Below are positions 1-22,294 of a stretch of DNA of 25,965 nt, piece by piece. Numbering within the stretch: the first letter of the stretch is position 1; every line of letters starts with the position of its first letter. The position numbers and the translations under genes were made by a program. Origin of the DNA: a virus (Duplodnaviria; Caudoviricetes); the IMG/VR virus record IMGVR_UViG_3300020045_002660, positions 1 to 25,965 of that record; one strand, 5' to 3'. The notes beneath the pieces are model-generated. The model was not told the origin of the DNA, did not search any database, and saw only the letters and a program-made list of their open reading frames with translations.

Positions 1-106
1 TTGCGCAAACAACGCCAAAGATAGCAACTGCAATTGAAGTCACAGGCGCGAACACAGCAACTAAAAGCGCCATAAGTCCGATTGATTTTAAGGATAATTT
101 TTTCAT
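1..106 (-). CDS. Partial CDS running off the window edge; N-terminus identical to the major capsid leader (MKKLSLKSIGLMALLVAVFAPVTSIAVAIFGVVCA...)
   Basis: ATG at 106-104; DNA 1-121 is identical to 2040-2160; preceded by an A-rich leader and a TATATTTG box at 173-166. Confidence 0.65.
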   Translation of the reverse strand, partial: MKKLSLKSIGLMALLVAVFAPVTSIAVAIFGVVCA

Positions 107-121
107 TGTGTTTTTGTTTTT
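1..121. repeat. Exact direct repeat, copy A (at least 121 bp, truncated by the window edge)
   Basis: Base-by-base match to 2040-2160; diverges at 122 (t) vs 2161 (g). Confidence 0.95.
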
Positions 122-165: not shown

Positions 166-173
166 CAAATATA
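166..173 (-). promoter_or_regulatory. Bacteroidota sigma-A -7 box (TATATTTG), no clear -33 box
   Basis: Matches TAnnTTTG, directly after the terminator and ~60 nt upstream of the ATG at 106. Confidence 0.55.
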
Positions 174-174
174 T

Positions 175-211
175 AAAAAATCCCAATACATTGAACGCAT
201 TGGGATTTTTT
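175..211 (-). terminator. Intrinsic (potentially bidirectional) terminator after the capsid/tube genes
   Basis: AAAAAATCCCAAT (175-187) / ATTGGGATTTTTT (199-211) inverted repeat with A/T tracts on both sides. Confidence 0.85.
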
Positions 212-236
212 GTATATGAAATAAAATTATTTATTT

Positions 237-866
237 TTACAATAAACCTTCGACAATTGCTTTTGTCGTTGCGTAGTCAGTTAAGAACAATGTTTTCGGC
301 ATGTGTGGTTCTGGCGAAAGGTCAGAAGTTTTCAATATAATATCGAAAGCCCCTTGCGTATCTGAAGAATTCACGTCGCGAATCATTTGTGTAACAACTA
401 AGCCAGCGTCAGCGCCATAAATTTCATACGCTGCATCGCCTGAAGCGCCTTTGTATTTGTTTGATACAATAGCAACAAAGCGTCCTTTTGCTTTCTTTTC
501 AAGTTGCGCTTTTGCCGCTGCATTCACTCCAAAAACTTTGTAGTTTAATTCGTGATTGTAAACTTCAGCGAAAGGCTGCTTGATCATTTCAAACTTAGGA
601 GCGATCGAATTGTTTTTTCCGTCCATTGTGTAAGCCACAATTCCAGAAGACAAAATGATATTTTCAACAATCTGCGGATTCAAAGAATTCAACGTCAACG
701 AAGCGTCTAACCAGTCTTCCCAGTTGATTAACGTCAAAGTGTCTTCCGATCCCGCTTGCAACGGATTGTCGCAATTGATCGTTTGATTTGCGGAAATTTT
801 CCCGCATAGCGTCCCGAACATTGAAACGATCGCAACGCCTGTAAAACTTTTTTTTCTGTTTAACAT
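237..866 (-). CDS. Virion structural protein, probable major tail tube protein
   Basis: Follows the MCP; ~209 aa; C..I.....C.NP...G.E....LIN and G.FVAIV..K pattern recalled from Bacteroidota phage structural proteins; ATG at 866 preceded by A-rich tttaatttaaaaaaa, preferred over 908. Confidence 0.55.
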   Translation of the reverse strand: MLNRKKSFTGVAIVSMFGTLCGKISANQTINCDNPLQAGSEDTLTLINWEDWLDASLTLNSLNPQIVENIILSSGIVAYTMDGKNNSIAPKFEMIKQPFAEVYNHELNYKVFGVNAAAKAQLEKKAKGRFVAIVSNKYKGASGDAAYEIYGADAGLVVTQMIRDVNSSDTQGAFDIILKTSDLSPEPHMPKTLFLTDYATTKAIVEGLL

Positions 867-927: not shown

Positions 928-2145
928 TTAGTATGCTACCATTACTAACTCGTCCTGAACTAACTTCGCGTCCAATGTATATTCAACGTCAATGAAGTTC
1001 TTTTTCGATTTCTTATCATAGAACACGTCAACGCCGTTGAACGAATTGTTATCTTCTAAACCGATTTGAATATTGTCAGTAGTCGTCAAAACGATTCTGT
1101 GCGGATCGTAGTATTTTGTACCATTGCTAAAGTTTGTGCGGATAAGACGATCCCATAAATTCCAGCCAATCACTTGAATTCCGCCAGACTTTAACAAAGT
1201 CATTCCGTTTTCAAGACGTTCAGTTGTATAGGCAACGTTAGCGCTTGACAATTCTTTTTCGTATTGATCGGCAACCGATTGCGTACAAATATAAACTAAG
1301 TTAGCTTTCTCGCGCAATCTGTAATCTGCGCCGAATCTCATTGCTTGTAAGTAACCAGAAACAACCTTATTTGTCACGTCAGTTGCGTCAAATGCTTGAT
1401 TCGCAAAAGTTGATTGTGCGTTTCTTGAAATTGCAATTTTCTTTGTTGCGTCAGCCGCTACGATTGTGTAGATTTGATTCCAGATTCCGTTAATGTGATT
1501 GAACAACGTCACGTCTGTTCCTGCTGTTAAAATACCCGCTGGCGAATCCGTAACAGTTGCATGATCAACGTCAGCGAACCAAGCAATGCGGAACAATGCT
1601 TCAAGGTTAGCAAATTTTAAACGCTCCTGAACGAAAACTAAGAAGTCAGTCGATGTCAAGTCTGCTTTTTCAACTCCGTTGTTTGTGCCCCAAACAAAGA
1701 AAGTATTCAAAAGATCGTCGCCGCAAGCCTCCAAACGAATTGAATTTTTTTCAGGCTCCCAGAACTTTTCTGACATTCCGATTGATACATTGTCGCTCGC
1801 TGGATCGCAAGTCTTACCAGATTTTCCAACCATTCCAAGCAATCCCAAAAGCGCGATTTGCTTTTTAGCTTTAATAGCTGGGACGATTTTATGGAATTTA
1901 TTAATTTCAGGGTTCGAATAAACATCTTCGAACGTTGCTTCTTGCAAGGTTTTAATTTCTTCGCCGTTGAAGGTTAAGTCAGAAGGCGTTAGAATCGCAA
2001 ATAATGAATTTGTTGCGTTTAAATTTCCGCTCATTAACGTTGCGCAAACAACGCCAAAGATAGCAACTGCAATTGAAGTCACAGGCGCGAACACAGCAAC
2101 TAAAAGCGCCATAAGTCCGATTGATTTTAAGGATAATTTTTTCAT
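928..2145 (-). CDS. Major capsid protein with N-terminal hydrophobic extension
   Basis: 405 aa, directly downstream of the ClpP protease/scaffold; LTFNGEEI..., EKFWEP, RIAWFAD and C-terminal strand pattern fit Bacteroidota phage MCPs (recalled, not searched). Confidence 0.8.
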   Translation of the reverse strand: MKKLSLKSIGLMALLVAVFAPVTSIAVAIFGVVCATLMSGNLNATNSLFAILTPSDLTFNGEEIKTLQEATFEDVYSNPEINKFHKIVPAIKAKKQIALLGLLGMVGKSGKTCDPASDNVSIGMSEKFWEPEKNSIRLEACGDDLLNTFFVWGTNNGVEKADLTSTDFLVFVQERLKFANLEALFRIAWFADVDHATVTDSPAGILTAGTDVTLFNHINGIWNQIYTIVAADATKKIAISRNAQSTFANQAFDATDVTNKVVSGYLQAMRFGADYRLREKANLVYICTQSVADQYEKELSSANVAYTTERLENGMTLLKSGGIQVIGWNLWDRLIRTNFSNGTKYYDPHRIVLTTTDNIQIGLEDNNSFNGVDVFYDKKSKKNFIDVEYTLDAKLVQDELVMVAY

Positions 2146-2160
2146 TGTGTTTTTGTTTTT
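2040..2160. repeat. Exact direct repeat, copy B (15 nt of 5' UTR plus first 35 codons of MCP)
   Basis: Identical to 1-121. Confidence 0.95.
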
Positions 2161-2199
2161 GTGATTGTTTTTTATTGTTTTAGTTGTGTTATTTTTAGA

Positions 2200-3351
2200 T
2201 TACTTTTTTTTATATACTTCTTTTCTTTCTGCGATTTTTTCTTTCACAGATTTTTCAATAACTTGGCCGATCTTTTTCCCGGCTACGAATTTTTTAACTT
2301 CGCCTTTTGGAACATACGCCGAACCGATTTCGCCTTTCAACTTCGTTAATTCTTCATTCATTTGCGCTTCGAAATCTGCAAAGATTGTTTCTTTTTCAGT
2401 TTCTAACTGTGCGATTTTTTCTTTCAATTGTGCGATTTCCATTTCTGGCGTCATTTCATTTTTCGGAGCAACAGAAACGATTTTTCCGCCTTCGATTTTG
2501 ATAATGTCTTCGCCTAATTCGATTTCAACGTCAGTCATTGGAACTGTCATTGCTTCGTCAGAGAATGCAAGAACTTCGACTGTATTGTCTGCGACAAAGT
2601 CAGCAAGCGGCTTATTAAGATAGATCGTTGTTGATCCGTCAGTACTTGTCAAAACTTCTGCTTTTGCTTCTGCTGGCGCTGCAGCAACTTTGATTCCAAG
2701 TTCTTTTCGTAGATTTGTTAATCCGATAGCGACTAATTCTTTAACAGTTTTTTTCATTTGTTCGATTATTTGATTTGTATTTGTTTGCTTTTCTATAAAT
2801 GCGACCGCTTTCAATTGTGAACGCGGGATTATTTCCGAAACGAAATTGAATTGCTTGCATTGTTCGTCAGTCAAAGAAGTTTCAAGCGCCATTAATCCCT
2901 CCAAAGCCGTCTTATCTAAATTCGTAGCGTTTGCATACATTGATAACATTTCTTTTTCGAATGTCTTTATGTATTCGCTTGCGTCGCTTAATTCGCTTGC
3001 GTTTCCAGTAACACCAACAAGCATTGGATTGTGTATAACATATTGCGTCCCCGCAATCATTTTTCTGCGCGCTAAAGGTACGGACAAGTGTATTTCTGTG
3101 CCCATTGAAGCGCAAAGAGTGTCGGCGATTGTGTAAGCGTTTTCGAAAGACGAAATGTATTTTGATATTGCGCGGCCTATTTCAATTGATCCGCCTTGCG
3201 AATTAATGTAAACATTCACAATGTCGGCGTCTTTGTTGCCGTTCATTTGCAAAACAACGTCAGCCAATTCAACGCCCTTGATTCGAACGGTTCCGTCTTC
3301 ATTCAAAGTGTTTCCGATTTGGCCTGTGATGTATATGTTTGCAATTTTCAT
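2200..3351 (-). CDS. ClpP-like (S14) prohead maturation protease fused to a C-terminal coiled-coil scaffold
   Basis: IYITGQIG, INSQGGS, CASMG (catalytic Ser), IHNP (catalytic His); C-terminal EIAQLKEKIAQLETEK coiled coil; immediately upstream of the MCP. Confidence 0.9.
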   Translation of the reverse strand: MKIANIYITGQIGNTLNEDGTVRIKGVELADVVLQMNGNKDADIVNVYINSQGGSIEIGRAISKYISSFENAYTIADTLCASMGTEIHLSVPLARRKMIAGTQYVIHNPMLVGVTGNASELSDASEYIKTFEKEMLSMYANATNLDKTALEGLMALETSLTDEQCKQFNFVSEIIPRSQLKAVAFIEKQTNTNQIIEQMKKTVKELVAIGLTNLRKELGIKVAAAPAEAKAEVLTSTDGSTTIYLNKPLADFVADNTVEVLAFSDEAMTVPMTDVEIELGEDIIKIEGGKIVSVAPKNEMTPEMEIAQLKEKIAQLETEKETIFADFEAQMNEELTKLKGEIGSAYVPKGEVKKFVAGKKIGQVIEKSVKEKIAERKEVYKKK

Positions 3352-3375: not shown

Positions 3376-3383
3376 CAAATTTA
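3376..3383 (-). promoter_or_regulatory. -7 box (TAAATTTG) of the head operon promoter
   Basis: TAnnTTTG ~25 nt upstream of the ClpP ATG; no TTTG at the -33 position. Confidence 0.65.
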
Positions 3384-3438: not shown

Positions 3439-3954
3439 ATGAAAATAATCGTTTTAGGGCTTGGCGAATCTATCGTGAATTATTCGCCTTCAAACATTGA
3501 AACCATTGGCGTAAATGATATTTATAAACATTACAGTACTGATCACGTTGTTTGTATAGATCCGCCGAATCGTTTTGACAATATTCGGATAAGAACTATT
3601 TCAGAAAGTAGGCCGAAAACATTTTTTTCGCAATTGGATATCTGGAAACCGCTTGTCCATAATTTCAAAAAAATAGACTTTGCAATAGGACGCGGAAAGT
3701 TTGACGAACTCGATTCGGATCGCGTATGCTACGGCTGTTCGTCGCCGCTTGTTGCTACTGTGATAGCCTACAAAATGGGCGCAAAAGAAATTGAACTTTT
3801 CGGCGTTGACTTTAACACGCACCCTAATTTTGTAGGAAGAACGCTTGAAAGATCTGTCAACGAATTTATTCTTCTGAAAAAGGAATTGAACAAACGCGGC
3901 GTTGTTTTAAAAACGCAACCGCAATCAATTTTATTCGGGCACTTTTGCCCATAA
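3439..3954 (+). CDS. Maf/DUF115/MptE-like or sialyltransferase-like (CstII/GT29-type fold) glycosyltransferase
   Basis: IIVLGLGESI, TIGVND, SSPLVA..IAYKMGAKEIELFGVDF motifs of this superfamily; start set to the ATG at 3439 after the promoter. Confidence 0.7.
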   Translation: MKIIVLGLGESIVNYSPSNIETIGVNDIYKHYSTDHVVCIDPPNRFDNIRIRTISESRPKTFFSQLDIWKPLVHNFKKIDFAIGRGKFDELDSDRVCYGCSSPLVATVIAYKMGAKEIELFGVDFNTHPNFVGRTLERSVNEFILLKKELNKRGVVLKTQPQSILFGHFCP

Positions 3955-4545
3955 TTTTGGGTGAAATTCTTTTGGATTAAGCGCCCTTGTTCCGCGCTCC
4001 AAGTGCAAGACGCGGCCTTCTAAGTCGAAGTTTTTTAAATGATAACGCCCTTTTTGTTTTATAGATTTCATTGTCACTATAAACGGCGCCCCGTGATGTA
4101 TAATAGGATCATGCGTCAGGTATGCGTTTTTGTCTATTACACAGAAATACGGGTGCAAATAATCTAATCCGTCGTCGTTGTTTATTCCTGCGTCGTTTAC
4201 CTTTATAACGCGGCCGACGCCGAATGTATTTTTTTCAAACATAGAAATCATTGATTCTAAAACAGGCGCTTTTAAAATAGTGTCCGAATCAATCAATGCA
4301 ACGAATCTTGTTTTTGAAATTCCGATTCCTAACTTCATTCCGTTTCCGTGTCCTATGTTATATTCTACGCATTTAGCAATAGTATGAACGTCGTTCAATG
4401 TTTTTGCATACTCATAGCAAGGCGACTTCCTTTGCGATCCGTCGATTATAACAAGCGGCATTTCTGGATAAATTGATCGAATTGATTCGACGCATTGTTT
4501 TAATAAATCTTTTTGATTGTATGATACTATTACGCCTGTTATCAT
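3931..4545 (-). CDS. Glycosyltransferase family 2 (GT-A)
   Basis: VIVSYN, IIDGS, NIGHG.G, LIDSD (DxD). Confidence 0.88.
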   Translation of the reverse strand: MITGVIVSYNQKDLLKQCVESIRSIYPEMPLVIIDGSQRKSPCYEYAKTLNDVHTIAKCVEYNIGHGNGMKLGIGISKTRFVALIDSDTILKAPVLESMISMFEKNTFGVGRVIKVNDAGINNDDGLDYLHPYFCVIDKNAYLTHDPIIHHGAPFIVTMKSIKQKGRYHLKNFDLEGRVLHLERGTRALNPKEFHPKLWAKVPE

Positions 4546-5069
4546 TTTGCTACAATGAAAATTCTTTCGTTAATACCTTCTTTTATTTGCCCGAACTGTC
4601 CAATGTTTTCGACTGAATATCCAGAATTCAAAAACAACTCCGACAGCGTATTCAAGTTATAATGTTTAAAAACTGTTTTGTCTGGAATGTAGTTTGGGTT
4701 CTCGTTTAATTTTAGCCAGTCAGCGTTTGGCGTTATTGCTATAATCTTGCCGCCTTTGTTCAGGTTCTTTTTTAATCTTGAAAGAAGCGTTTCAATATAC
4801 TGAACATGCGCGATCGAATGCATAAAATAAATAATGTCGTACTGTGCGATATTGTCAATATATGTGAAATCTTCATTCCATTTTGTTTCGTCATATCCGA
4901 AAACTACATGTTCCGTGAATGCATTAAGTTTTTCTACATTCGATCCGATCCCGCACCCGTAGTCAAGAATAGTTTTAGGCTTTGCGCCGATAAGCGATTT
5001 TAAAAACTTGTATTCAATTTTATACTTTTCAGTGCTATTGAATTTTTGTAATTTGATTTTATAGTCCAT
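4542..5069 (-). CDS. Class I SAM-dependent methyltransferase
   Basis: ILDYGCGIG motif I, YDIIYFMHSIAHV, LNKGGKII.ITPN. Confidence 0.92.
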   Translation of the reverse strand: MDYKIKLQKFNSTEKYKIEYKFLKSLIGAKPKTILDYGCGIGSNVEKLNAFTEHVVFGYDETKWNEDFTYIDNIAQYDIIYFMHSIAHVQYIETLLSRLKKNLNKGGKIIAITPNADWLKLNENPNYIPDKTVFKHYNLNTLSELFLNSGYSVENIGQFGQIKEGINERIFIVAK

Positions 5070-5961
5070 AAATCTGCGTTATTTTTTTAGCTGTTTTTGA
5101 AAATGAATGAAATTCTTCTGCCCAGACGCGGGACTTTATTTGGTTTATTTGCACGTTTTTAATTGCTGCGGCAAATGCTTTTTTGAATTCAGAATCTGTG
5201 TTGTATTTAAAAAATGGCGTGTTCACTCCGTAGCTTTCAAAGTAGATTCGTTCGCCTATGTTTTGTGTCAAAACAACTTTTCCCATTGCAGCGCATTCAA
5301 GCGCCGTCACTCCAAAAGATCCGTATTTTTTGCCGTTCTGTTCTGGATTAAACAATTCAATATAAACATCGCAAGAATTCATTCTTTCAAGTTGCTGTTC
5401 GTAATCGACAATAGATTCGCTGAATTTATATTCGAAGTCGAATTCGCTTTTCAATTCACTTATAAGTGAATTTATTCTTTCGGTTCCTTTGACTTTTGGA
5501 TTTGAAGGAAAATGTCCGACAGCAACCTTCTTTCCTATTCTGTTTTGATACGGTTTTGTTTTTACAGTGTCGATCGCTCCGACTACATACTTTTCGTTTT
5601 TTGCTCCCTGTCCAATAAATTCAGGAAGTGCACAGATTGAAAGTTCGACAAAAGGATTGAATAGCGAATTGAAATAGCTTGATCGCTGGCGATATCTTGT
5701 CCCAGTATGAAACACGACAGTTCTTTTTCCTGTTGTGTATTTCAATGCGAAGTCTTCTGAATGGAAAATTTCAACGATGTCAGCGTCTTTTATTATTTCA
5801 GGAATTTCAGATTCGGAAACGACCTTTGATTGCGAATCGTATCTAAAAATATGGCTTTGCAATTTTATATCCACGCAATTAACGCCAATCGACCGCAATG
5901 CGTTCGCGTGGTTATGCATGAAATTTGCGTGATCGTCATTGCAAATGCTTACTATTTTCAT
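5059..5961 (-). CDS. Glycosyltransferase family 4-like (GT-B)
   Basis: GHFPSNPKVKGT, CDVYI, SFGVTALECAAMGKVV nucleotide-sugar-binding motif. Confidence 0.85.
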   Translation of the reverse strand: MKIVSICNDDHANFMHNHANALRSIGVNCVDIKLQSHIFRYDSQSKVVSESEIPEIIKDADIVEIFHSEDFALKYTTGKRTVVFHTGTRYRQRSSYFNSLFNPFVELSICALPEFIGQGAKNEKYVVGAIDTVKTKPYQNRIGKKVAVGHFPSNPKVKGTERINSLISELKSEFDFEYKFSESIVDYEQQLERMNSCDVYIELFNPEQNGKKYGSFGVTALECAAMGKVVLTQNIGERIYFESYGVNTPFFKYNTDSEFKKAFAAAIKNVQINQIKSRVWAEEFHSFSKTAKKITQIYGL

Positions 5962-6463
5962 TCTTTAAATCTTTTACAAAGTCAGGAAGCCAAGTCATTT
6001 TCCCTGTCACATTCATTTCGTGTTTCCCTTTTTCCTTTATCAATCCGAACCAGTGATTCAATTCTTCTTTCGTGTGGAAATAGCGATAGACGTTTCTTAT
6101 TTCGCAATCGCCAGTTTGTTGTATTTTCGTTTTAATGTAGTTGTAAATAGTATTAGGATTGTCGCCCCATGTTATTGATCCGATCCGAAAAATGCAATAG
6201 TTTTCGAATGTTTCCTTGACGATTCTTTCACAGTTCAATTTGTGTTCCGTGTATTCGGTTCGTCTTTCTGCTTCAGGATAATAGATATTTAGTCCGCTTA
6301 TATAAACGAACATTTTGTCGCGATCGCAATTTAGAATTCGATTGATTTCTTTCTGCTTTCTTTCTTCGGTAAGTTCGAATCGGTTCGATTCTCCGCAAGC
6401 AAAAAAAATGAATCCTTCTTTGTCTGTGATCACGCTGGCGATCGCTCCGCGTCCTAAGATCAT
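5936..6463 (-). CDS. Short NAD-dependent epimerase/dehydratase/reductase (SDR-like)
   Basis: MILGRGAIA glycine motif, IFFACGESN, FVYIS, catalytic YTEHK (YxxxK), IFRI. Confidence 0.75.
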   Translation of the reverse strand: MILGRGAIASVITDKEGFIFFACGESNRFELTEERKQKEINRILNCDRDKMFVYISGLNIYYPEAERRTEYTEHKLNCERIVKETFENYCIFRIGSITWGDNPNTIYNYIKTKIQQTGDCEIRNVYRYFHTKEELNHWFGLIKEKGKHEMNVTGKMTWLPDFVKDLKNENSKHLQ

Positions 6464-7161
6464 TTGTATATTTGTTTTAGTTTATTACGCATTGATAATT
6501 CTTCGATATCATTCATTTTTTCGCGTCTGCATTTGTTTGATTCTTGGCCTTGATGTACTGTGTATTTCATAACTGCGTCAGAAACAAAATCGACGTTTAA
6601 TTCTTTCAAGCATCTAATTTTAAAAAGCCAATCGAAGTAATATCGCAAATCTGGATCAAATCTGAACGGCAAGTTCGAACGATACATTAAGGTAGTGAAA
6701 TTTATGTATTCGTCGACAAGAATTCTTTCTTTGTCTGGAATAGCTGCAGGAATGAAATTCAAAAATTCGCCTTTTATATTTTGCGTAAACACTCCGCCAT
6801 AAACGACGTCTGTTTTTTTGTTTTTTAAAAATCTTTCAGCGCGAATCGAAATGCTTGATTCCGTTAATTCGTCGTCGTCATGTAGCTGGCAAATAAGATC
6901 CGCGCTTGATTTTTCCCAGATTAAATTCCAGTTATTCGGCGGCCTGTTATTATTCAATGAACTATGAATCAAAATTCTTTCGTGTCCTTTGTAGTGCTTC
7001 AATATTTCTGGCGTTCCGTCTGTTGAAGCGTCGTCCAGAATTATAAGTCTGCTTTTTTTGTAATCGTTTTTTATGAACGATTCAATAGCACGTTCGACAA
7101 GCGTTGTTTCTCCTATCTTTTGGCCTCTGTTAAAAGTCGCCATTAAAACGTCAACATTCAT
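6460..7161 (-). CDS. Glycosyltransferase family 2 (GT-A)
   Basis: VLMATFNR, ILDDASTDGT, LHDDD, DWLFKIR; ATG at 7161 overlaps the upstream stop (ATGA). Confidence 0.92.
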   Translation of the reverse strand: MNVDVLMATFNRGQKIGETTLVERAIESFIKNDYKKSRLIILDDASTDGTPEILKHYKGHERILIHSSLNNNRPPNNWNLIWEKSSADLICQLHDDDELTESSISIRAERFLKNKKTDVVYGGVFTQNIKGEFLNFIPAAIPDKERILVDEYINFTTLMYRSNLPFRFDPDLRYYFDWLFKIRCLKELNVDFVSDAVMKYTVHQGQESNKCRREKMNDIEELSMRNKLKQIYK

Positions 7162-7316
7162 AGCGCTGCGTAAATTAAAAATGACCAGATTGAAATTGTA
7201 AACAAAACAATAAGAAGCCAAACAATTTTCGCCTGTCTTTTGTCCCTTACTTTTTTTTGTTCGTTAAGGACATGCGTTCTGTAACCTCTGCCGAAATATT
7301 TATCTTGATTGATCAT
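7158..7316 (-). CDS. 52-aa single-pass membrane protein, not in the ORF track
   Basis: MINQDKYFGRGYRTHVLNEQKKVRDKRQAKIVWLLIVLFTISIWSFLIYAAL; ATGA overlaps at both ends fill the gap exactly. Confidence 0.8.
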   Translation of the reverse strand: MINQDKYFGRGYRTHVLNEQKKVRDKRQAKIVWLLIVLFTISIWSFLIYAAL

Positions 7317-7906
7317 TCCTTCGCCCCCCTTGAAACTTTTCCAGTTTCCGACATTTGTTTGTCGTACCAGTAGACTGTCGGGTTTGATTTCATTACTTCG
7401 TTAATAAAGTAAAAGTCGCCCATTCTTTCTTGACCAAAATGTTCGATATATTTTTTATACAATTCAGTCTTAACAGCAAAGCAAGATCCGCCAATTGATC
7501 CAGCGATCATTTTATTATTACGCCATTGATTAGGCGTCGGATAAAGACAATTGTTTTTATTCCTTATATGCATTTTAAAGAAAATAACATCGGGATTCAT
7601 TAACTCTGAAATGGATTCCAACTGCAATACGATTAACGGATTCGTGATAAAGTCGTCGTCGTCAAGTAAAAAAACATACTTCCCGTCAATTTCTGACAGT
7701 ACTTCAGGAAGCGAAAAAGACTTGTTCGCGTTTAACATTCCATGTCCGACTGAATCTATTATGAAGATCTGTTCGAAGTTGTTTCCGATTATAGCGTTTA
7801 CGGATTTGACATTCTTTTCAAATCCATTCGGGCGCAAATACTTTCTTGTTATTATCGAAAGAAAAGGCGAATCGCTGTGCTTTATTTTCTCTATTTTGTA
7901 AACCAT
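7313..7906 (-). CDS. GT-A fold glycosyltransferase (GT2-like)
   Basis: FLSIITR..RP, EQIFIID, GKYVFLLDDDD, GDFYFI. Confidence 0.82.
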   Translation of the reverse strand: MVYKIEKIKHSDSPFLSIITRKYLRPNGFEKNVKSVNAIIGNNFEQIFIIDSVGHGMLNANKSFSLPEVLSEIDGKYVFLLDDDDFITNPLIVLQLESISELMNPDVIFFKMHIRNKNNCLYPTPNQWRNNKMIAGSIGGSCFAVKTELYKKYIEHFGQERMGDFYFINEVMKSNPTVYWYDKQMSETGKVSRGAKE

Positions 7907-8535
7907 TTAGAATAAAAATTGAATGATCTTTCGTCGATTAAAGTTTTCAAATATACATGATTTTCGTCAGTTCCGTGAAATTTTGTCCAGTTTATATCGT
8001 GGCCACCTCCGCCGCATAATCCGACGCCGTGTTTTATTCCGACGCAAATTTTCCCTAAATCGGTTGCAAGTTTTGATTTTTCTTGTTGCCAGATAATCAT
8101 ATCGGTATAGGAATAAGAATCGTCGCCCCAGTTTATTTTCGCGTTCTTCGAAATCATTGTTGACATCATTGACGCTCTGTTCGGGTGCACAAGATCCGCA
8201 AACTTAGAATTCACAATGTTATAGTAAATAGTTTTGTTAAGTCCGAAAATATTCGGACGCCCATTTGCAAGCCAAGCGCGACACATTATTTCAATGTATC
8301 TTCTTGAATAATAGTCGTCGTCTTCGCAAAACAAAACAACGTCGCATCCTTTTTCGAATAGTCGCTGCGTCCCTATCCTATATCTATACGTTATGTCTGG
8401 ACTGTCAGAAATAGGCTTGTCGTCTACTATTTCGTGAAAGTCAGGGCGAACAGTTTGCGCCTTTATCATTGATCTGCAATGATCAACAAATTCAGGGCGA
8501 TCGCCCCGCGTGATTGTTAAAACTCCTATTTTCAT
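7891..8535 (-). CDS. GT-A fold glycosyltransferase (GT2-like)
   Basis: TITRGDRP, QTVRP..HEIVDD, DVVLFCEDDDYY. Confidence 0.82.
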   Translation of the reverse strand: MKIGVLTITRGDRPEFVDHCRSMIKAQTVRPDFHEIVDDKPISDSPDITYRYRIGTQRLFEKGCDVVLFCEDDDYYSRRYIEIMCRAWLANGRPNIFGLNKTIYYNIVNSKFADLVHPNRASMMSTMISKNAKINWGDDSYSYTDMIIWQQEKSKLATDLGKICVGIKHGVGLCGGGGHDINWTKFHGTDENHVYLKTLIDERSFNFYSKWFTK

Positions 8536-11383: not shown

Positions 11384-12102
11384 TATAGAATTTTATAAGT
11401 GAAATTAAAAAAATGCTCGTGATTTCCAGCGTCGTTGTCGTCGCCTACTAACTTCGCTCTATTGTTTGTGACGTCCGCCTTAACATACATTACGTCAGTC
11501 GGACTGCTAACGCCTACGCCTATTCCAACGCATTCGCCGTCAGAAGAAAAGTCAGACGCTATCGGAAGCGAAATTCCAAGTTCGTAGGCTCCATTAGAAG
11601 AAAGATCTATTGCTACCTTTCCAGATACATGAACGACTTTTCCATTTCTTAAAACAAAGCATTCAAAGGCCGTAGACGCCGCAATGTTAAGATCTGAAGA
11701 AAGCGTCGGCGTGTATGTGAAAGAAGGCCTATATTCAAACAACTTATCGAATGAAAATCCGTCAAAATGAAGTCCAGTCGCATCGCCTTTTTTATATAGA
11801 ATCACAGAAGATTCGCCGTCAATTTTCGCCGATCCATAAGGAACAATTATAACACGGCCAGCCCCGTCGTCAGACTTTTTTATTGTTATTTGTTTCCCTA
11901 TTACAATAGGATAAATAACTTGTCCTTTCATAGCCTGAACCGATTCAAGCGCTAATTCTGGATTAACATATCGAAGTGAAATTGTAACGTCAGAAGCGCC
12001 AGTCGATACCTTGATCGTCCCGTCAAATTCGGAAACGTCATAGTCGGCGTCAACTGTTTTTATTGATGCATAAGGCGGAAATATATTTTTCGCTTGCGTC
12101 AC
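11383..12102 (-). CDS. Tail fibre/receptor-binding-like structural protein
   Basis: TIKV....VTISL, G.QITIKK, IDG.....L....LHFDG small beta-domain pattern; C-terminal RNGKVVHVSG..SLP head-like domain; GTG at 12102 overlaps the upstream TGA. Confidence 0.55.
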   Translation of the reverse strand: MTQAKNIFPPYASIKTVDADYDVSEFDGTIKVSTGASDVTISLRYVNPELALESVQAMKGQVIYPIVIGKQITIKKSDDGAGRVIIVPYGSAKIDGESSVILYKKGDATGLHFDGFSFDKLFEYRPSFTYTPTLSSDLNIAASTAFECFVLRNGKVVHVSGKVAIDLSSNGAYELGISLPIASDFSSDGECVGIGVGVSSPTDVMYVKADVTNNRAKLVGDDNDAGNHEHFFNFTYKIL

Positions 12103-12365
12103 TTGCAAATAGTTTGTTTTAAAACATATTGGTTCAATGAATCGACAAAGATCGTTTGCGATCCGTTTATTGCATTCAGTCTTTCGTCATTACACAAAAC
12201 GACTTCAGTTGAATCGTAAGTCACTGCGCCTGTTGTTTGGTTCTTGTACGAAACTATGCATGTTTGACAAACGTCTGGCGCTGCTTCTTTCTTGCATCCG
12301 TAAGTACAAAACACAATCGCCGCAATGGCTAAAAATAATAAAAATAATCTGGAATAAGTTTTCAT
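12099..12365 (-). CDS. Small Cys-containing lipoprotein
   Basis: Basic n-region, hydrophobic h-region, lipobox-like TYG-C followed by KKE; CQTC motif. Confidence 0.8.
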   Translation of the reverse strand: MKTYSRLFLLFLAIAAIVFCTYGCKKEAAPDVCQTCIVSYKNQTTGAVTYDSTEVVLCNDERLNAINGSQTIFVDSLNQYVLKQTICK

Positions 12366-16845: not shown

Positions 16846-17285
16846 AATGTATTTGTATAATTTAATTTTACAGTGATTGAAAGAACGATTCCAGAAACAT
16901 TGACGTCGAATAGGTTAATGAATTCTACTTCAGACGCATTTCGAACCGATTGAACGTTTGTATTTTCTTGTAATCTTGTTATAAATTGATTAACCAGCAA
17001 TCGCGCTGGCTGAATGCATTTTTGATCATGCTGAAGCGGCGTCCAGTCTGGCTGCGACTTGAACATAAAATAAACGCGGATCGGGTATTCTCTTTCGATT
17101 AATCCGCTTTGAGCCATTAACAAATTAGCCTGAATAGGGCTATCAAGAAACATTGCTGAATCGACAAAACTTTGTTCGTCCAGAACTTTATTTTGAAACG
17201 ACTTTTGCCCGTACATTAAAGAAGGAAGCGACTTTCCTTCATATTTCATTGCGCTAACTACTGCGCTGCAAACTGTTATGATCAT
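16833..17285 (-). CDS. Probable tail terminator/neck protein
   Basis: 150 aa; size, position and C-terminal F...FD.NVSG..L.I.V strand pattern. Confidence 0.45.
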   Translation of the reverse strand: MIITVCSAVVSAMKYEGKSLPSLMYGQKSFQNKVLDEQSFVDSAMFLDSPIQANLLMAQSGLIEREYPIRVYFMFKSQPDWTPLQHDQKCIQPARLLVNQFITRLQENTNVQSVRNASEVEFINLFDVNVSGIVLSITVKLNYTNTLCLE

Positions 17286-18052
17286 GCTGGCTTCGGCGTT
17301 AAGATTTGCTTATAGTTTTCTTGGTAAATAGATTCGACAAGCGATTTTCGTAGCTTCAAAAATACGACGTTATATTCTAAATTCAAAATATCTTCGTACT
17401 TTAATACGTCGCCGCCAGCAAGCGTGTCGACAATGTTCATAACTCCGAATTCATTGAACATGTCAATTCCTGCGCGCAATTGTTCTTGCGTCGGCTTCTT
17501 CTTCAATTGTGTTGCTTCTGTTTCAAGTATGTCAAACAATTGCTTTGTGTAATTCTGTTGGATTGCGAAAGCGTCAGGCAAATTGATAGCCCGTGCAATC
17601 ATATACTTGTGAGCCTCTGACAAATCTGGATCGTATGGCTTTGAAGTTAAAATAGGCTGGAAATATATTTCAATCGTTGTTAGTATCTTTTGAATAATGT
17701 CAATATCTTTTTCGCTTAAAAAGGAATGCAATTCGATTTTCTGCCCGAATGTTTTTGTTTTTATGTCGATTCTTGGATCTATCGAAGTGTAATTCACTTT
17801 TACTTTTTCAGGAATGATCCATTCAGAAGGATCGAAATTTCGCTGGATAAAAGAGCACGTCGAAACAATCAAGTTTCTTGAACCGACGTCAAGTTTTTCG
17901 ACTTCCGATTCAGTTAATCCAGTTAGTAAAGACAATATTTTTGTTTGATTGTCGCTGTTTTTTAATACTTCAGAGTATGTATAGACGCTTATGTCTGACC
18001 AGACATTCGGAATGTTCAAAGATTTTCCGCTGTTTGTTTTCGCTTTTATCAT
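17282..18052 (-). CDS. Morphogenesis protein, possibly tail assembly chaperone
   Basis: True start probably ATG 18052 (ATGA overlap with terL stop); IPNVWSDIS..Y and C-terminal FG...IVD.LAGGD..KYE.IL. Confidence 0.45.
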   Translation of the reverse strand: MIKAKTNSGKSLNIPNVWSDISVYTYSEVLKNSDNQTKILSLLTGLTESEVEKLDVGSRNLIVSTCSFIQRNFDPSEWIIPEKVKVNYTSIDPRIDIKTKTFGQKIELHSFLSEKDIDIIQKILTTIEIYFQPILTSKPYDPDLSEAHKYMIARAINLPDAFAIQQNYTKQLFDILETEATQLKKKPTQEQLRAGIDMFNEFGVMNIVDTLAGGDVLKYEDILNLEYNVVFLKLRKSLVESIYQENYKQILTPKPA

Positions 18053-19236
18053 TTGATTAGTGTTGCACGCGCTCCGCCTTTTGGCGCGCTTAGTTTGTAT
18101 TTTGCTACATATCGAATCCCGTCGATTGCGTGGTTTAAATAGTCGACAGGCACATTCAAAAGTTTGTTTGTTGCTGCGTCCTTCTTCCATGAATAGCCGC
18201 GCCATTCTTTTATTAGATCAAGCGAATGATTAACAATGCAATATTCGTAACGCTTCATTAAGTCGATCCCGTTCTTGATGCTGTCGGCGCCTTTTACTGC
18301 TCCGCGAATATTCCAGCCAAGTCGTCGAAGATCTTCGATTGATTTTTGTTCGGCCGAATCTGCTATGATTTCGTTTCTTCCGACGCCCATTTGTTTCATT
18401 AGATTGTGAATCTCGATGTTCGTCAAGCCTGTTTGATAGATCATTTGTTCAAGATAGATTTTGCCTTCTTTGATTCCGACCTTAGTTAAGGCCGTAACGT
18501 CGTTAGAATATCCGAAGTCCAGCCCGTAGCATATCCATTTGCAGCCGTCAGGAAACGACGGAACAGGCGTAAACGATCCAAAGATCACGCCTTCAAGACT
18601 TCCGATCTGTCCAAGTCCGTAAACTTTCCACCAGTTAGCCCAGTAAGCGTCGCCCGCATCGCCTTTTACTTTTGCTTTCTCTATTTCCTTAATGATTGAT
18701 TCGCCCAGCCCTTCATTATCCTTGTAAGTCAAGGTTATAAAGTCTGTGTCCTTGTCTGGAATTACTTCAGTATCAATCCAGAATTCGTGTGACGGGTTCC
18801 AATCCGCAAAGATTTCGTCCGAAGTCCTGATCGCTAATTGGTGGAATGTGTCAAAAGTTAAGTTGTTACACTCGTTCATATACAAGATATGTCGACGCAT
18901 ACCACGAACCGAAGATTCTTGTTCGGCCGAAAAGAATTCAATATAGGAGCCATTCGAAAAAGTATATTTCCTGTCTGTAATATTCCAGTGATCGTCAATG
19001 TAACGCCCCGTTATTTTCATTATTTTTAAGAAGTCCTTCATGGCTCCTTTCTTCAAATGCGGGACAGATTCCGAAACAACGGAAATTTCTTTCAATGGCG
19101 TTTTAGTTGCTCGATCAATTAGAACAGGAAGGATTCCGAATGTCTTTCCAGCGCTTGTTCCGCCCCTTATCGCCTTAACTCTCTTTTTTAGTTTTAGAAT
19201 CTTGTTGATTGCTGTCGTTCTTATAAATCCGTCCAT
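18049..19236 (-). CDS. terL: Terminase large subunit (PBSX family-like)
   Basis: Walker A GGTSAGKT, Walker B LYMNE, DWNP coupling motif, RNase-H-like nuclease GLDFG...ADSA...NHAIDGIRY. Confidence 0.95.
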   Translation of the reverse strand: MDGFIRTTAINKILKLKKRVKAIRGGTSAGKTFGILPVLIDRATKTPLKEISVVSESVPHLKKGAMKDFLKIMKITGRYIDDHWNITDRKYTFSNGSYIEFFSAEQESSVRGMRRHILYMNECNNLTFDTFHQLAIRTSDEIFADWNPSHEFWIDTEVIPDKDTDFITLTYKDNEGLGESIIKEIEKAKVKGDAGDAYWANWWKVYGLGQIGSLEGVIFGSFTPVPSFPDGCKWICYGLDFGYSNDVTALTKVGIKEGKIYLEQMIYQTGLTNIEIHNLMKQMGVGRNEIIADSAEQKSIEDLRRLGWNIRGAVKGADSIKNGIDLMKRYEYCIVNHSLDLIKEWRGYSWKKDAATNKLLNVPVDYLNHAIDGIRYVAKYKLSAPKGGARATLIK

Positions 19237-21829: not shown

Positions 21830-22294
21830 TTAACTGTTGATTATTTCTTTTAATTTCGATCCGTCTAAGCCTTTGAACGGAAGCGCATTAACAACGGCAA
21901 GAATTAAAGAAAGAAACGCCGTGAAATCCAGCAATCCGAAGTCTGTTGATTGATAGCTGATCCCGTTGAATAAGCAAAATAAATACGTTTCCATGAATTC
22001 AAAGTAATGGCCATTTAAAACAATGAATCCGAATGTCAGATTGAAAATGATTCCGCCCGACAAAACTAAGATCCATTTCCACAACTCCGCGTCTTTGTTT
22101 TCGAAATTGGTTGCGCCGCTCCATATCATCCAGCCGATGTTTATTTTTAAGCCGAAGATCCGAACCGACAGAACAGGCCTTTTGTTGTATAAAAATAATG
22201 TGATCGAATCTATTTTAAATCCGAATAGCTTTCCGAAGAAAATGTGTCCCGCTTCGTGGATAAGGATCACAAGTATAATTGACAGTATTACCAT
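21830..22294 (-). CDS. Peptidase M50 / site-2 protease family intramembrane metalloprotease
   Basis: HEAGH (HExxH) in TM1, GGIIFNL, NALPFKGLDG (NxLPxxxLDG with Zn-ligand Asp). Confidence 0.9.
   Translation of the reverse strand: MVILSIILVILIHEAGHIFFGKLFGFKIDSITLFLYNKRPVLSVRIFGLKINIGWMIWSGATNFENKDAELWKWILVLSGGIIFNLTFGFIVLNGHYFEFMETYLFCLFNGISYQSTDFGLLDFTAFLSLILAVVNALPFKGLDGSKLKEIINS

Follow-up and report, generated by a model that had tools for sequence, protein, structure and literature searches.

Why would a tailed phage place some fifty largely hydrophobic residues in front of its major capsid protein? The common view is that the capsid and tube subunits of tailed phages are soluble and reside in the cytoplasm. 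The window analysed here is an entire virus record of 25,965 nt, with an estimated completeness of 75%, in which the capsid ORF (928-2145, minus strand, read from 2145 to 928) encodes 405 amino acids. The features that bear on the question are the following.

1..121, minus strand: chimeric join at the contig end, exactly repeating the 121 nt of 2040-2160
169..217, no strand: terminator-like hairpin past the tube gene
237..866, minus strand: tail-tube-fold protein, likely the major tail protein, with a 17-residue extension at 816-866 (model, VIA-align, alignment)
928..1998, minus strand: 356-aa core of the HK97-fold major capsid protein, the predicted mature form (phrog_38780, E 1e-39; AlphaFold2 model; Foldseek)
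1996..2001, minus strand: predicted cleavage junction Phe49/Ala50, codons TTT GCG, no start codon (alignment, junction counts, codons)
1999..2145, minus strand: capsid leader, residues 1-49, comprising a basic N-region, segment 1, a turn at Pro21, segment 2, a polar spacer and Phe49 (alignment, hydropathy)
2041..2073, minus strand: hydrophobic segment 2 (I25-A35), Kyte-Doolittle (KD) mean 2.90, low-confidence model helix at 27-37
2089..2121, minus strand: hydrophobic segment 1 (I9-F19), KD mean 2.93, low-confidence model helix at 7-17
2146..2170, minus strand: A-rich translation-initiation region with A at -3 (sequence; adenine rule of Bacteroidia)
2200..3351, minus strand: ClpP-like prohead protease with a scaffold-like C-terminal part, candidate processing enzyme (Pfam CLP_protease, E 7e-19; PHROG head maturation protease)
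3376..3383, minus strand: TAnnTTTG element ahead of the operon for protease, capsid and tube

The capsid gene and its leader

The original prediction that the ORF encodes a major capsid protein is borne out by modelling. The AlphaFold2 model, built on an alignment of 121 sequences, has a mean pLDDT of 82 and yields 347 Foldseek matches at E <= 0.001; against the PDB, the best match is the mature capsid of phiRSA1 (E 2e-11), and HK97 itself is among the matches. Judged by this model, the core of the ORF is an HK97-fold capsid protein. Pfam assigns no family to either the capsid or the tube protein. ESM Atlas matches to the capsid are phage clusters that align from residue 53 onward. The gene sits in a head module, with the ClpP-like gene upstream (its Ser82 and His107 motifs are both present) and terminase subunits inside the window; in relatives, the portal-like gene is found two genes past the tube gene.

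The nearest isolated relative is Bacteroides phage BS-TP3 (PQ571276), which has the same order of ClpP, capsid, tube-family protein, small gene and portal. Its 355-aa capsid, 29% identical to that of the window, differs in aligning only from query residue 49 on, and is thus the leaderless form. The host of the window's phage is likely a Bacteroidota, because this phylum is named in the titles of 26 of the 32 genome loci with relatives, because BS-TP3 is the nearest isolate, and because of the TAnnTTTG element, the Bacteroidota -7 promoter consensus. Elsewhere in the window, a conserved gene ahead of the tail genes (17282-18205, minus strand) is listed with a 307-aa start that overlaps the terminase and is probably too early, since its relatives have about 233 aa. 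An 88-aa ORF between tail genes (12099-12365, minus strand) has a lipoprotein-like signal, a hydrophobic stretch followed by Cys.

The leader is charged only at K2, K3 and K7. It has no acidic residue, and residues 8-55 are devoid of Lys, Arg, Asp and Glu. Its best 19-residue hydropathy mean is 2.52, calculated like the other means with Kyte-Doolittle scale values. Pro21 lies centrally, between the two hydrophobic 11-mers. In the AlphaFold2 model, pLDDT is below 50 over residues 14-49. The capsid-like part starts at A50 (nt 1998), and alignment with capsid homologues, a check proposed along with the original prediction, places Met1 of the leaderless relatives at Phe49. A leader of about 50 residues resembling a signal peptide or transmembrane segment had been predicted. 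The leader is real, with the basic start, hydrophobic character and central Pro ascribed to it, but its form is that of a two-segment hairpin, not of a single signal peptide.

Translation almost certainly begins at Met1. An internal start at Met38 (MSGNLN), which had been raised as a case against the leader, or at Met12 was rejected: Met38 is replaced by Leu in the 85%-identical relative P0004, and the start context is poor. The base at -3 is T at Met38, C at Met12 and A at Met1; it is A or G at 63 of 70 leaderless starts and at all 21 leader starts. In Bacteroidia, adenines upstream guide the choice of start, according to the accessible part of PMC13000457. A dual start at the junction was also discarded, the codon there being ATG in 4/21 genes, TTG in 2/21 and TTT in the window. 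Nor are the leaderless forms mis-called starts, as most of their loci have an in-frame stop a few codons 5' of the start.

Capsid homologues fall into two length classes, of about 358 aa and about 400-420 aa. Among the matches listed, a like leader is present in 18 of 120 homologues and in 23 of 150 representatives of 50% clusters; four split-match rows out of 57, which are not leaders, were dropped from the count. In total, 49 distinct capsid leaders were collected. Hydrophobicity, whose absence from homologues would have told against the leader, is conserved. It is the architecture that is maintained and not the sequence: two 11-mers with KD means of at least 1.8 are found in 36 of the 44 full-length capsid leaders, and a Pro within the linker in 32 of them. 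Lengths form a continuum (21-60 aa on the capsid, 6-66 aa on the tube protein), the short leaders having a single hydrophobic segment. At loci L044, L008, L002, L036 and L196, capsid or tube proteins bear N-terminal extensions of 4-30 aa, mostly hydrophobic at the end, which are possibly a minimal form of the same tag. In all seven DNA pairs, which are drawn from relatives (four from one group, none including the window's own gene), leader pN/pS is 0.26-0.61, against 0.05-0.29 for the cores. Leaders in relatives are under purifying selection that is relaxed compared with the core.

The copy of the leader region at positions 1-121 is a chimeric join, and a second leader-bearing gene there is ruled out. 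The tube terminator normally precedes a conserved gene, of which the window has only a 19-residue stub starting at 162 (minus strand). Compared with the family profile, the stub outscores 500 of 500 shuffles; it breaks at an A-rich stretch resembling the capsid start region (microhomology). The chimeric end leaves the leader finding intact, because independent relatives reproduce the leader.

The tail-tube protein and the distribution of leaders

In other phages of the family, the same architecture is met on the product of the gene next to the capsid gene, which in the window is 237-866. The model of the window's protein (pLDDT 86.5) has no Foldseek match at E <= 0.001. The top VIA-align rows are tube, terminator and Dit-type folds with Z up to 8.0, each score being middling; the SPP1 tube gives Z 7.5, rmsd 4.1 and 130 aligned residues. 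The modelled fold is likely of the tail-tube type. Fold and position together point to the major tail protein, and position argues for a tube rather than a terminator or Dit protein. The window's tube protein has a 17-residue extension, basic then hydrophobic, with Phe at the position equivalent to Met1, and the closest relatives have it in common.

Among 184 loci with a tube gene (window included), 16 carry a hydrophobic leader of 34-63 residues on the tube protein and none on the capsid, while eight carry a capsid leader, four of these with a short tube extension and four without. Both long leaders at one locus were found in 0/8 capsid-leader loci and 0 of the 184, a set in which the capsid start is unknown at 11 loci and some contigs appear twice because two collections include them. 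This exclusivity is not significant, with fewer than one double case expected among cluster representatives. Tube hairpin leaders next to leaderless capsids occur at L011:11144-11872, L027, L063, L069, L101, L132, L174, L197 and others. When 5084 ORFs from 204 loci and the window were filtered for such an N-terminus, 27 were retained, and 22 of them are capsid or tube proteins. When profiles of capsid and tube leaders were tested against each other, the score exceeded those of all 20 composition shuffles in 16/39 and 15/18 cases. At the level of sequence, this shows a shared architecture, not shared ancestry.

Leaders are scattered over the capsid tree, which comprises 246 cores obtained by clustering 439 complete cores at 75%. 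Its 36 leader-bearing rows need 17 changes, of which at least 10 are forced by well-supported branches. A single leader clade is rejected (p-AU 1.5e-34) on a 40-row subset chosen after that tree was seen. Repeated gain and repeated loss fit the tree alike. The window's clade (P0001, P0006, P0008) is nested among leaderless forms that are about 60% identical, and near relatives occur in three states: with the leader on the capsid, on the tube protein or on neither.

Probable topology, predicted cut site and candidate processing enzyme

In 55 leaders (36 capsid, 19 tube), Lys and Arg outnumber Asp and Glu by 117 to 2 in the first eight residues and by 44 to 14 in the last 14, against 14 to 30 in the middle (Fisher p 1.6e-5, relatedness ignored). 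For the capsid leaders alone, the middle has 11 of each, or 3 versus 11 when helix-based windows are used. From sequence, the bias of the family is consistent with a hairpin whose two ends face the cytoplasm, a topology that would leave the shell domain at the site of DNA packaging. For the window's own leader, the topology rests on the family, because there is no charge past K7. Its hydrophobic stretch of about 30 residues cannot cross the membrane twice in full and would instead dip into it as a shallow re-entrant hairpin; long leaders can form two spans. Insertion of the leader into the membrane is very likely.

Leaderless forms start with Met followed by a small residue in 139 of 144 cases. 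At the position equivalent to this Met1, 28 of 46 anchored capsid leaders have Phe, Leu, Met or Tyr (background 16%); the figure rises to 36 of 46 with a one-residue shift, 18 of 46 have none of these residues at the exact site, and three further leaders could not be anchored. The same residues occupy the site in 18 of 23 long and 12 of 29 short tube leaders. Within one close group, the junction codon is variously ATG, TTA, TTG and TTT. It is therefore the residue class that is kept and not a start codon. A cut past Phe49 would yield the N-terminus that Met removal gives the leaderless relatives. We consider Phe49/Ala50 the probable cleavage site, and removal of the leader before the mature shell very likely.

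Which enzyme would make this cut? By default, suspicion falls on the ClpP-like protease of the phage, whose case we put at slightly worse than even. ClpP prefers hydrophobic P1 residues. The protease-scaffold family is encoded in 16/16 records compared, but it has no correlative weight, because it is also present in leaderless phages. In the leader-bearing L196, the upstream protein (L196:8608-9930) has no ClpP match. The tube protein would be out of reach of a protease that works only within the prohead; its cleavage would have to take place outside the head. A host protease is a possible alternative. L008 has an S78 prohead protease in the upstream position (L008:9047-9973), a protease swap.

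A comparison of gene content between 10 leader-bearing records, most of them incomplete, and six leaderless ones revealed no family both confined and common to the former. No dedicated small peptidase is shared by the 10, and 150 of the 186 candidate ORFs gave only sub-threshold matches to C92. This permuted papain-like family (L223:6963-7487, just below the Pfam cut-off) occurs in 3/4 tube-leader, 2/6 leaderless and 0/6 capsid-leader records. The window encodes a 154-aa, site-2-protease-like M50 peptidase (21830-22294, minus strand), which is absent from all five other leader-bearing records, one of them complete, and was rejected as the enzyme. Prp (PF04327) was found in 0/5 phage records (two at least 90% complete, the window at 75%). 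The control search detected it in B. subtilis, T. maritima and L. lactis but not in B. thetaiotaomicron.

A proposed membrane-anchored precursor and its alternatives

The reading that best accommodates these data is that of a membrane-anchoring propeptide cut at Phe49/Ala50, to which we assign a probability of roughly 0.55. The 49-residue leader would fold as a helical hairpin in the host inner membrane, both ends facing the cytoplasm. Anchoring would serve as a holding step for two high-copy, polymerising proteins, curbing premature polymerisation and concentrating monomers in two dimensions. A cut past Phe49, with the phage ClpP-like protease as the candidate enzyme, would then free the subunits before or as they join the shell. 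A closed shell with every subunit tethered is hard to reconcile with geometry, so release would have to come early. It had been proposed that whole proheads assemble tethered to the membrane and lose the leader at maturation. Tethering followed by cleavage is indeed what the sequences favour; tethering of a complete prohead is the doubtful element. Subunits freed ahead of assembly, or in its course, suit the data better, the main reason being that the leader can sit on the tube protein instead.

A hydrophobic propeptide that is cleaved without ever entering the membrane, acting as an intramolecular chaperone or an internal scaffold like the HK97 delta domain, seems unlikely. In its favour, capsid proteins are known to shed N-terminal propeptides (65 residues in T4 gp23; PMC9958956), and capsid and tube proteins both occur with short extensions that do not span a membrane yet have the same hydrophobic end. 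This does not explain 48 consecutive uncharged residues or a bias of the positive-inside type. A scaffold-like domain is, moreover, already fused to the protease, and an internal head scaffold would presumably be of no use to a tube protein. The presence of the leader on either of two unrelated high-copy genes, never in full on both (0/8 capsid-leader loci), and a patchiness like that of accessory modules would also suit a freed hairpin with its own function in the inner membrane (lysis timing, superinfection exclusion), fused to a top-expressed late gene for dosage. We find this quite improbable given the low sequence conservation and the relaxed selection compared with the core, and given that the numbers are too small for the exclusivity to be significant. 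Among proteins below 222 aa, a search whose reach is limited to close relatives revealed no free-standing copy.

Still less can be said for a Sec signal peptide cut by signal peptidase I, which would export part of the protein or leave segment 2 as an anchor. The likeness lies in the n-region and h-region (MKK, then a hydrophobic core), in Ala-x-Ala at residues 26-28 and in the single hydrophobic segment of a few leaders. The loose (-3,-1) rule is satisfied in 24 of 46 leaders one residue past the Met-equivalent site, but in just 11 of 46 at that site. In most leaders, basic residues come after a second segment, and there is no conserved Ala-x-Ala at the domain junction. Among 150 of the 186 candidate ORFs from leader-bearing records, none matches a signal-peptidase family. 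The passenger is cytoplasmic, and phage heads must be in the cytoplasm for DNA packaging. A leader that is retained, with particles assembling around lipid or staying bound to it, has in its favour that cleavage is a prediction and that no dedicated peptidase was found. It is nevertheless hardly credible, because close relatives, with cores about 60% identical, form their shells with no leader at all, and the hydrophobic residue conserved at the Met1 position points to a cut site there.

It had also been suggested that the leader recruits modifying enzymes. The island at 3439-8535, which adjoins the operon on the opposite strand, between the tape measure and protease genes, and is variable in relatives, encodes GT2-type glycosyltransferases, a methyltransferase and an MptE-like protein; glycosylation of the virion or of a surface is a possible function. 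Across 42 cluster-by-state rows whose sequence covers the interval, and with similarity to the window's own enzymes as the sole means of detecting islands, it is present in 5/7 capsid-leader, 2/5 tube-leader, 6/23 leaderless and 1/7 unknown-state rows. The leader thus tracks the island in a nominal excess (capsid leader versus the rest, 5/7 vs 9/35, Fisher p 0.031), but any leader versus none gives p 0.079, and three of the five island-positive capsid-leader clusters are one clade. The island is missing from two of seven capsid-leader and three of five tube-leader clusters, among them the complete leader-bearing record L036. It is neither needed nor sufficient for the leader, and the proposal that the leader is a recognition tag for these enzymes, leading to glycosylated virions, is weak and most improbable. 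In L036, genes for QueC, PTPS and GTP cyclohydrolase I (L207:3399-5617) suggest 7-deazaguanine DNA modification.

The HK97 delta domain is a capsid propeptide cleaved by the prohead protease; like the propeptide of T4 gp23, it is a soluble, charged, scaffold-type piece and not a membrane segment. The window's leader, with three Lys, no acidic residue and a KD mean of 2.52, does not match this type, and neither of those propeptides is known to move to the tail tube as the leader does in the window's family. As described in the part of PMC9958956 that is accessible, the T4 prohead forms on the inner membrane via the portal gp20 and is freed after cleavage, when gp23 loses its N-terminal piece. 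The likeness proposed for the window lies in an N-terminal capsid piece, removed in T4 by the prohead protease, and in head assembly tied to the inner membrane; the difference is that the tether in T4 is the portal, whereas here it would be the capsid's own leader. In the Staphylococcus phage 80alpha, N-terminal extensions of capsid and scaffold are cut at Phe/Ala by the host Prp and are needed for capsid incorporation (PMC9405229, accessible text). Those extensions, too, are on structural proteins and end in Phe/Ala, but they are soluble tags of 13-14 residues with an L27-like motif, not a 49-residue hydrophobic hairpin. Of the motif Lxx(D/N)LQ(F/L)F followed by Ala given there, only the Phe/Ala end is common to the window's leader. 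By analogy, the leader would act like a cleaved propeptide while belonging to neither the 80alpha nor the T4 gp23 type.

The hankyphage capsid, considered as another carrier, has no leader, and the accessible text of the hankyphage paper (PMC12135933) does not mention a transmembrane segment or signal peptide. That text and those of PMC8143477 and PMC11445458, as far as accessible, contain nothing on such leaders. No description of such capsid or tube leaders was found in the open-access literature; supplementary virion proteomics could bear on them.

Capsid and tail-tube proteins trigger the defence systems Avs7, Avs8, Avs10 and Avs16 (PMC12803255, accessible part). The leader may hide free capsid and tube monomers from these sensors. 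This idea is speculation, because the same systems sense many other proteins, which are leaderless here.

The wider proposal is that, in a widespread group of tailed phages of Bacteroidota, the capsid or the tube protein is made as a membrane-anchored precursor, by means of a swappable hairpin propeptide that is repeatedly gained or lost, and is released by proteolysis at the membrane face. We advance it tentatively, as a little less than an even bet. If true, tailed phages would have a protease-gated, membrane-templated assembly route. The anchored precursor would add a step to assembly, one that gives either the ClpP-like maturation proteases or a host enzyme a new role. Because near relatives occur in three natural states, the reason for head assembly at membranes is testable by simple swaps. 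For annotators there is a warning, in that a call of 'signal peptide' or 'membrane protein' can mask capsid and tube genes.
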